A DNA stretch of 1,551 nt, taken from NCBI RefSeq assembly GCF_024298765.1, contig NZ_CP101221.1, one strand, 5' to 3'. Each line of letters begins with the position of its first letter. Within the stretch, counting starts at the first letter, position 1. The DNA comes from Escherichia coli (GTDB lineage: Bacteria > Pseudomonadota > Gammaproteobacteria > Enterobacterales > Enterobacteriaceae). Made by a program: the position numbers and the translations under genes. The notes below the pieces were generated by a model, which made no database searches, was not told the origin of the DNA, and saw only the letters and a list, made by a program, of their open reading frames with translations. Shown in pieces: positions 668 to 1,551 of the stretch.

Positions 668-971
668 CCCCATCGCTGTAACACCGACGGTCTACGACCA
701 CCAACCAGCCGAATAGCTGCCTGTGCCGTGCAAATAGGCTTTGCAGGGGGCTGACGCGGTTCCTAGCGACCTGAAAGCCCCTGGTTAGGGGTATCGGCGC
801 GCCTGACCTCCTGAGAGCCTCTGTAAGCGTTTTTCGCGCCTTCCATGCCCTGACGGGCATTTAAAACCCGTTTCGTGTGTCTGAGAGCTTCTGAGCGCGT
901 TTGAGGGGCTATCTGGCGACTCATCCCCGAAAGAACAACAACGGAATCACCGACAACATGCGAGAGGTGAC

Positions 972-1032
972 ACCGCTCGCCGCAGCCCCAGCGACCGAAC
1001 GTAGTGAGCGAGTGGGCGAGGAAGCGGAAGAG
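972..1032 (-). other. ColE1-type primosome assembly / single-strand initiation (n' site)-like segment
   Basis: The minus strand reads CTCTTCCGCTTCCTCGC...TCGGTCG...GCTGCGGCGAGCGGT. This matches the pBR322/pUC segment CTCTTCCGCTTCCTCGCTCACTGACTCGCTGCGCTCGGTCGTTCGGCTGCGGCGAGCGGT in blocks of 17/17 and 15/15, in the same orientation and order relative to the bom homolog as in pBR322. It contains the AAGCGG hexamer associated with factor Y (PriA) sites. Function here is inferred from homology. Confidence 0.45.
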
Positions 1033-1068
1033 AACCGGAAACCACATTGAGCACGTACGCACTGATGC

Positions 1069-1093
1069 GGGGTGTCGGGGCGAAGCCCTGACC
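1069..1093. repeat. Left copy of perfect 25-bp inverted repeat (GGGGTGTCGGGGCGAAGCCCTGACC)
   Basis: Exact reverse complement of 1298-1322. The two copies are separated by 204 bp (1094-1297), which includes the oriT nic-like segment. Confidence 0.95.
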
Positions 1094-1260
1094 AGACGGC
1101 AAACGGAATATCGTCGCGGGTGACGGTATTACATTTGCACATCCTGTCCCGATTTCTGAGGCGTTTTAGCGGTGAACGGACGGCAAAACCATGATGGAGC
1201 TGTTGAGCGTTGAGAGCGTGAAATCTGGCAAAAATCACGGCTGGCGAGGCTTGTAGCGGA

Positions 1261-1360: not shown

Positions 1361-1416
1361 ATAGATCTTTTACGCCGATTTGTAAGTTGTTGTTTTTTTA
1401 GTGTGTTTTTTGTTTA
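1361..1416. other. AT/T-rich tract (T7 and T6 runs); candidate DNA-unwinding element of the replication origin
   Basis: gatcttttacgccgatttgtaagttgttgtttttttagtgtgttttttgtttacc is markedly AT-rich compared with the GC-rich flanks and lies next to the repeated and palindromic elements upstream of repA. Confidence 0.3.
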
Positions 1417-1443
1417 CCTGTCGCATCCAGGGTGACACAACGT

Positions 1444-1464
1444 TGTCGCATCCTGGATGCGACA
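1444..1464. promoter_or_regulatory. 21-bp palindrome TGTCGCATCC-t-GGATGCGACA, with a third copy of the arm at 1419-1428; candidate RepA operator or origin binding site
   Basis: Perfect 10-bp arms around a single central base. The same 10-mer TGTCGCATCC recurs as a direct repeat 25 bp upstream (1419-1428). A further small inverted repeat GCAACA-agg-TGTTGC lies at 1469-1483, overlapping the candidate -35. Upstream location fits autoregulation by an HTH Rep, but binding is inferred. Confidence 0.45.
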
Positions 1465-1479
1465 ACACGCAACAAGGTG

Positions 1480-1508
1480 TTGCACAGATGTGTCATGATG
1501 GCTTAGAT
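1480..1508 (+). promoter_or_regulatory. Candidate repA promoter (-35 TTGCAC 1480-1485, 17-bp spacer, -10 TTAGAT 1503-1508)
   Basis: Sigma70-like hexamers with 17-bp spacing, about 40 bp upstream of the presumed repA start and overlapping palindromic elements. Both hexamers are imperfect (3/6 and 4/6), so this is a weak call. Confidence 0.3.
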
Positions 1509-1536
1509 TTGAACCAACGTTAGTGCATGGGATTTT

Positions 1537-1551
1537 CAGAGGGAAAAAATC
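1537..1551 (+). promoter_or_regulatory. Ribosome-binding site for repA across the presumed circular junction (cAGAGGGaaaaaatc then ATG at 1)
   Basis: Purine-rich GAGGG at 1539-1543 followed by an 8-nt A-rich spacer to the window end; the ATG at position 1 would follow immediately on a circle. Confidence 0.5.

Follow-up and report, generated by a model that had tools for sequence, protein, structure and literature searches.

Iteron-controlled theta replicons with Rep_3 initiators, such as pPS10, F, R6K and RK2, are built around three to seven direct repeats, spaced by about 22 bp and bound by initiator monomers. The small Escherichia coli plasmid pKL1 is closer to the replicon analysed here. 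Its replication control was reportedly dissected experimentally between about 1999 and 2003, and Burian's work of 1999 and 2003 is said to describe hexamerisation of RepA and RepA binding domains both in the origin and at the repA promoter. One passage of the published description places the pKL1 oriV upstream of rep, with an IHF box and Rep-binding sites, and a passage of PMC12361487, citing Burian 1999, describes copy control by Rep only: Rep regulates its own expression and, when in excess, binds elements of the origin in a non-productive way.

The window, i.e., the whole stretch of DNA analysed, is a complete circular E. coli plasmid of 1551 bp that starts at the repA ATG. The segment under study, 1419-1508, had been presented by a first-pass annotation as palindromic and repeated elements overlapping a candidate repA promoter, likely an autoregulatory operator or an iteron-like origin core. 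Given the molecule is circular, this segment counts as upstream of the repA start, 44-133 bp before the ATG across the circular junction. The repeats are most probably the RepA-binding origin/operator region of a pKL1-type plasmid; this element is already known, and its identification is correct but ordinary.

Plasmid identity and relation to pKL1

Many complete circular plasmids of 1551 bp, from E. coli, Klebsiella and Shigella, are 100% identical to the window along its full length, and one of them (NZ_CP029183) is typed Col(MG828), a PlasmidFinder group. Its identity with pKL1 (E. coli KL4, NC_002145, 1549 bp) is 94%. After rotation to a common start, the two plasmids differ at 90 of about 1550 positions, mainly in the part outside the replicon (478-1322). 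By segment, the divergence is 9.6% in 478-1322, 4.3% in 1323-1416, 0.6% in repA and 0% in 1442-1551. Within 1419-1508 there are two substitutions, at 1432 and 1436, both inside the decayed half of the first of the two dyads described below. The three nucleotide differences in repA are all silent, and NZ_CP029183 and pKL1 have the RepA accession WP_000469298.1 in common. Positions 1419-1466 of the window correspond to about 780-827 of pKL1 (an offset of 639). The low divergence at the second dyad, the promoter and repA points to constraint. Judged by its sequence, the window is a pKL1-type minimal replicon, with the same element as the pKL1 RepA/oriV in the form of a sequence variant.

For the window itself this is of little significance, given the replication control of the same plasmid has already been studied experimentally. 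In the records of these very common tiny plasmids, RepA is named merely "helix-turn-helix domain-containing protein", and no origin feature is annotated.

Two records come from unexpected hosts: NC_004833.1, a 1488-bp 'Corynebacterium renale' entry that is 99.6% identical to the repA-upstream region, and CP046599.1, a 1593-bp 'Acinetobacter indicus' entry encoding a RepA that is 96% identical. Contamination, mis-assignment and real transfer are all possible for them.

The diverged part of the plasmid holds DNA of another kind. The segment 1068-1162, which includes CATCCTGT at 1140-1147, has about 89% identity with the sequence that directly precedes nikA in the IncI1 plasmid ColIb-P9. The segment 1262-1326, on the minus strand, has its match in ColE1-type plasmids at the bom position, between rop and mobC. 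The arms of a 25-bp perfect inverted repeat lie at 1069-1093 and 1298-1322. From these matches, 1068-1162 and 1262-1326 appear to be two oriT-like sites in inverse orientation, which accounts for a relaxase-less 1.5-kb plasmid being typed 'mobilizable' and for parts of the window matching as many as 3677 plasmid records. The RefSeq hypothetical protein WP_158414302.1 (73 aa, 921-1142, minus strand) is probably not a real gene, since it overlaps the oriT-like DNA in a part of the plasmid that has diverged by about 10% from pKL1.

Two tandem dyads upstream of repA

The 10-mer TGTCGCATCC occurs in exact form at 1419-1428 (+), 1444-1453 (+) and 1455-1464 (-) and nowhere else in the window, the two + strand copies being spaced by 25 bp. 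These three positions agree with those first annotated, and every other repeat listed there also lies where it had been placed. The 21-bp palindrome described there is real but larger: the second dyad unit is a perfect palindrome of 25 bp at 1442-1466, GTTGTCGCATCC-T-GGATGCGACAAC (12+1+12). Likewise, the upstream direct copy 25 bp away is present, yet it is the left half of a decayed second palindrome (1419-1439) and not an isolated iteron. In this first dyad unit (1417-1441), the left half TGTCGCATCC (1419-1428) is intact and the right half is degenerate, with GGGTGACACA (1430-1439) matching GGATGCGACA at 7 of 10 positions. The region therefore consists of a tandem pair of 25-bp dyad units, of which the second is perfect and the first decayed.

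A repeat search of the window aligns the two units as 23-nt repeats with 83-87% identity. When the whole window was shuffled with dinucleotides preserved, a perfect inverted repeat with arms of at least 12 and a loop of at most 6 was obtained in only 2 of 2000 shuffles, so that the 25-bp palindrome is rare by chance. Both units are perfect in the relative L013 (86% DNA identity), where they read TGTCGCATCCAGGATGCGACA-ACGT-TGTCGCATCCTGGATGCGACA. The second unit is presumed to be a high-affinity site for a RepA dimer.

Palindromes such as these could also act as DNA or RNA hairpins or as a cruciform (e.g., a terminator, a single-strand initiation signal or an antisense RNA stem-loop) instead of as protein sites. 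The strand does fold far better than its shuffles (-18.1 kcal/mol, z = -4.95), pairing is kept while the arms vary between lineages, and the minus strand of the second dyad scores as terminator-like in pKL1. This last match, however, depends on a tail absent from the window, where the dyads have neither a T-run nor a terminator match. A pure structure would need neither the identical half-site in both units nor the unpaired copies nearby, and the pairing of the first dyad has been lost in the window and in pKL1 while the plasmid has not. Since the best promoter candidates lie downstream of the dyads, the dyads would be outside the repA mRNA. No Rfam family matches them either: scanning the whole window produced only a chance-level miRNA match over the palindromes, and no RNAI/RNAII or other plasmid RNA. 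With these observations, a role as structure alone is very improbable. An intrinsic terminator at the dyads was discarded as a separate candidate, given a G+C-rich stem plus T-run conserved among the relatives was not found.

The RepA protein

The product of repA (1-477, + strand) is a winged-helix protein of 158 aa with the same sequence as pKL1 RepA (WP_000469298.1), and it is taken here as the plasmid's only protein. RepA matches the Pfam family HTH_36 with 34.8 bits (cut-off 25) and RepL (PF05732) with 17.7 bits, which is under the Pfam cut-off of 20.3. Rep_3 has no match at E ≤ 1 among the 25 best of the 26 Pfam families listed for RepA. The NCBIfam scan of RepA and of a RepL-annotated homologue assigned neither to a replication-protein family and returned a generic HTH below cut-off. 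The PDB sequence search with RepA also returned generic HTH entries only, below any cut-off, and no sequence relative with a solved structure.

The AlphaFold model of RepA (pLDDT of 70, above 90 in the core) contains a long N-terminal helix, a single winged helix, in which the recognition helix (H88-100) precedes a beta wing, and a C-terminal region of low confidence. The nearest solved folds are TubR, ArsR/SmtB, MarR and the CodY C-terminal domain, all generic dimeric winged-helix DNA binders, although their similarity to RepA is weak (E no better than 6e-3, query TM-score of about 0.3-0.4). In its model, RepA has a winged helix like those of dimeric repressors. The earlier impression that the repeats look like binding sites for a dimeric HTH protein is supported by the perfect 12+1+12 palindrome together with this fold. 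A Rep_3 initiator with two winged-helix domains was rejected as a candidate, given Pfam assigns RepA to HTH_36, with no Rep_3 match at E ≤ 1 among those 25 families, and its model has a single winged helix.

Conservation of the layout among related replicons

The window was compared with 15 further plasmids, making a set of 16 with RepA homologues 100-42% identical. The lineages were taken from a plasmid collection, and their hosts include Pseudomonas, Aeromonas, Citrobacter, Klebsiella and Paracoccus (pAES1), i.e., both gamma- and alphaproteobacteria. All 16 replicons have a tandem pair of dyads with a spacing of 25±1 bp, situated roughly between -190 and -50 relative to rep. In each of the 16, the pair follows a conserved IHF box and an AT-rich tract and precedes the best promoter candidate. 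The most distant members, L011 and L012 (42-44% RepA identity), have a spacing of 24 bp and half-sites that are arranged differently.

Within each plasmid the same half-site is present in both units, and half-sites differ between lineages, the variants being GTCGCAT, AGCTCAC, GGACAC, TGACAC, AGACAC, CGACAC, GGAAAC, TTTGCAT and TGTTTCA. The relatives carry equivalents of the second dyad with lineage-specific half-sites. For most members, the majority of the plasmid-wide matches to the 7-mer core are located within 200 bp upstream of rep (7 of 8 in L005 and in L006, and 5 of 6 in L004).

The IHF box, in contrast with the dyads, is near-constant in sequence across the lineages. This is what would be expected if the plasmid's own protein reads the dyads and the host reads the IHF box. 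It also bears on the proposal that the dyads are sites for a host protein, such as DnaA, XerCD or another host regulator. A DnaA-box-like 9-mer, TGTTGCACA, does occur at 1478-1486 with one mismatch, yet DnaA-like matches are at chance level, with the same count in 97 of 200 shuffles, and they are not conserved in the relatives. Moreover, the dyad sequence differs between plasmids of the same host species while their IHF box stays constant. We regard a host reader of the dyads as extremely unlikely.

The recognition helix and the half-site go together in three independent comparisons. L010 and L015, compared with L017, are 58-59% identical overall, and all three have the helix TTRT[IV]RNW and the half-site GGAAAC. 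L004, compared with L005 and L014, has the helix STRTIRRW and the half-site GGACAC in common with them. The window, pKL1 and L013 form a third group sharing both helix and half-site. There is, however, one clear exception, and one further case is striking. The exception, L009, which looks mosaic, combines the window's half-site with another helix. The striking case is L003, whose RepA is 80% identical to that of the window with a single helix change (I92K) and which nevertheless has a different half-site, its dyads being TAGCTCAC. A strict one-to-one recognition-helix code was rejected on account of these two members. The covariation of helix and half-site is suggestive, not decisive. Lineage-specific half-sites that mostly track the recognition helix speak indirectly for RepA as the protein binding these repeats.

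A further proposal, which we hold tentatively and with somewhat less than even confidence, is that the pKL1-like family naturally comprises ten or more RepA/dyad specificities, all orthogonal to one another, on one fixed scaffold. This scaffold may consist of the IHF box, the AT-rich tract, the two dyads with their spacing of 25±1 bp, and the promoter. The specificity may be set by a few positions of the recognition helix (residues 88, 89, 92 and 93 of the window), and I92K does accompany the switch from GTCGCAT to AGCTCAC between proteins that are 80% identical. If true, the proposal would explain the coexistence of several such 1.2-1.6-kb plasmids in one cell, and it would offer a ready kit of minimal compatible replicons. 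The conserved layout would also permit family-wide annotation of oriV, and it suggests how specificity and incompatibility diverge.

RepA homologues also occur in another setting. L018 (CP125034.1, 39397-39777) and similar loci on 70-118-kb IncF plasmids encode an N-terminally truncated homologue, about 74-77% identical, between IS26 copies. Such a locus looks like what is left of a small plasmid after its capture by IS26. Dyads are absent upstream of it, and it contributes nothing to the dyad comparison.

Candidate promoter and leader of repA

The best repA promoter candidate lies at 1480-1509 (+ strand), with the -35 element TTGCAC at 1480-1485 and the -10 element TTAGAT or TAGATT at 1503-1509. 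No promoter passes a strict σ70 consensus scan of the window and of pKL1. With a lenient scan, TTGCAC-18-TAGATT ranks second among the + strand candidates. It aligns with the top-ranked promoters of L003 (TTTACG-17-TATATT) and L013 (TTGCAT-18-TACATT), and the best candidate promoter is directly downstream of the dyads in every relative examined. The promoter first proposed, TTGCAC-17-TTAGAT, is the best local candidate and aligns with stronger promoters of relatives. An extended -10, TGtCATGAT at 1491-1499, is a possible alternative repA promoter. The top-ranked + strand promoter of the lenient scan was set aside as implausible, since transcription would start inside the Shine-Dalgarno sequence, which is GAGGG at 1539-1543 (+ strand), 8 nt before the repA ATG (position 1, across the junction).

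The second dyad ends at 1466, and 13 bp separate it from the predicted -35 at 1480, which places both large dyads upstream of the core promoter. The overlap of repeats and promoter that had been claimed therefore holds in part: the large dyads are clear of the predicted core, and what overlaps the -35 is a 5-bp inverted repeat. Because the large dyads do not overlap this predicted core promoter, simple steric repression of repA from them is not obvious.

Only two promoter-proximal repeats touch promoter elements. The first, at 1469-1483, is a small inverted repeat (GCAAC-AAGGT-GTTGC) that runs into TTGCAC (1480-1485) with its right arm. It is present as had been noted, though statistically weak, since several repeats with a 5-bp arm and a 5-nt loop are expected by chance in 1.5 kb by simple arithmetic. 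At the position of 1469-1483, L013 has the inverted repeat CAACA-AGA-TGTTG, and L009 has an inverted repeat with 10-bp arms and the half-site core, abutting a -35 TTGACA. The repeat at 1469-1483 may be a weak operator, on evidence that is itself weak. The second, beyond the end of 1419-1508 and between the -10 and the Shine-Dalgarno sequence, is a degenerate third copy of the inter-dyad plus half-site sequence at 1510-1528 (+ strand; TGAACCAACGTTAGTGCAT against TGACACAACGTTGTCGCAT, with 14 of 19 positions matching). It is a candidate low-affinity site that RepA would bind. Additional half-site copies are usually also present in the promoter and 5'UTR region of relatives.

A natural deletion variant exists in this part of the family. 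L014 (NZ_AP026432.1, Klebsiella quasipneumoniae) is near-identical to L005 (NZ_CP109928.1) in RepA and dyads, and its rep-upstream region is without about 25 promoter-proximal bp of L005, the TATGAT -10 included. This deletion could show which of the downstream sites are dispensable.

AT-rich tract, IHF box and origin context

An AT/T-rich tract occupies 1361-1416, with 62-70% A+T in 40-nt windows, and an A+T peak lies upstream of the dyads in the relatives examined. The tract is a candidate DNA-unwinding region of the origin. Within it, an IHF-consensus box is found at 1383-1395 (minus strand), AAACAACAACTTA, with one mismatch against WATCAANNNNTTR. It is the one match in the window at up to one mismatch, which alone is not significant. 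In all 16 family members, however, an IHF match with zero or one mismatch is present at -134 to -197 from rep, mostly as AATCAATAACTTA. The proposal that the dyads and the adjacent T-rich tract form the vegetative origin and repA operator is supported, in that the repeats lie, beside an IHF box, in what the literature describes as the oriV/Rep-binding region of pKL1. We infer that the footprinted Rep sites of pKL1 correspond to 1417-1466.

In the 5' to 3' direction, the elements are ordered as hairpin 1325-1353, AT/T-rich tract with the IHF box, dyads, small inverted repeat, -10, third copy, Shine-Dalgarno sequence and ATG. The motif GTTGC/GCAAC, which had been noted as shared between the promoter-proximal repeat and the hairpin, does recur in the latter, at 1331, 1336 and 1343. 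This 5-mer occurs eight times in the window against about three expected, a recurrence that by itself is not statistically notable. It is no marker of RepA sites, because the hairpin core GCGCAACAC persists in L003, whose dyad sequence differs. The hairpin is itself conserved, as AAGGGCGTTGCG...CGCAACACCCTT, followed on the minus strand by TTTTGGGG, which is terminator-like, and the changes seen in L003 and L013 leave the stem paired. A possible role of the hairpin is that of an insulator between the oriT and ori regions.

This hairpin matters for an alternative in which the dyads are operators only, i.e., RepA binds them solely to repress repA and the origin fires through other sequences, such as the hairpin or sites in the AT-rich tract. 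Repressors typically have dyad-symmetric sites and a winged-helix fold of the ArsR/MarR kind, the dyads here are next to the promoter, and pKL1 RepA is described as autoregulating in the passage of PMC12361487 cited above. Still, the dyads stop 13 bp short of the -35, and it is the extra half-sites of relatives that lie inside the core promoter. Every family member keeps its dyads beside the IHF box and AT-rich tract, and the hairpin is unchanged when the specificity of RepA changes. The literature, in the description cited above, puts Rep-binding sites in oriV. Accordingly, we consider an operator-only role unlikely, and a combined role in origin and operator is preferred.

Proposed mechanism

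The best explanation as a whole, which we consider highly probable, is that the plasmid is a pKL1-type replicon in which 1417-1466 comprises two tandem dyad sites for RepA dimers, serving both the origin and autoregulation. The pKL1 identity, the anatomy of the region, the conservation of its layout and the lineage-specific half-sites come from this analysis, while the autoregulation by RepA, the Rep-binding sites and IHF box in oriV, and hexamerisation come from the literature.

Under this explanation, dimers of RepA, as both initiator and repressor, would occupy both dyads, and IHF would bend the neighbouring box. Dyad-bound RepA and IHF would then open or mark the adjacent AT-rich DNA for loading of the host replisome, which would constitute the origin function. 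As RepA rises, higher oligomers would spread from the dyads to weaker promoter-proximal sites, for which the candidates are the inverted repeat overlapping the -35 and the degenerate third copy (1510-1528). RepA spread in this way would shut off repA transcription and/or make the origin complex non-productive. Copy number would thereby be set without an antisense RNA or a classical iteron array. The division between sites for initiation and sites for repression is one that we infer.

Comparison with known systems

As an iteron-like origin, the region fits loosely. It resembles iteron replicons in having a plasmid-specific initiator and repeated sites by an AT-rich region and an IHF site, an initiator that also represses its own promoter, and repeats that determine specificity. 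It differs in that there are two palindromic units, presumably dimer-bound and spaced by 25-26 bp, and a RepA of 158 aa without Rep_3. A classical iteron origin was rejected as a candidate, given two internally palindromic units 25 bp apart stand against an array of at least three direct repeats of about 17-22 bp. Hence, the iteron-like part of the first reading survives only in the loose sense: there are two units and no array, each unit is dyad-symmetric, and the protein has a single winged helix (HTH_36) and not Rep_3.

ArsR/SmtB, MarR, the CodY C-terminal domain and TubR are the best structural matches of RepA, and dyad-symmetric DNA sites are a further likeness. In comparison with ArsR/SmtB-type repressors, RepA has in addition a long helix at its N-terminus and a conserved region at its C-terminus, and, in the passages of the literature cited above, it is also a replication initiator. 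The likeness to RepL comes from L011 and L012 (42-44%), which are named RepL by NCBI and have related repeat clusters upstream of rep, although the RepL match of RepA (17.7 bits) is below the Pfam cut-off of 20.3.

The closest system is pKL1, with an identical RepA, the same IHF-like box and dyads, and homologous DNA upstream of repA. The two differ in the decayed right half of the first dyad, which is GGATGAAACA in pKL1 and GGGTGACACA in the window.
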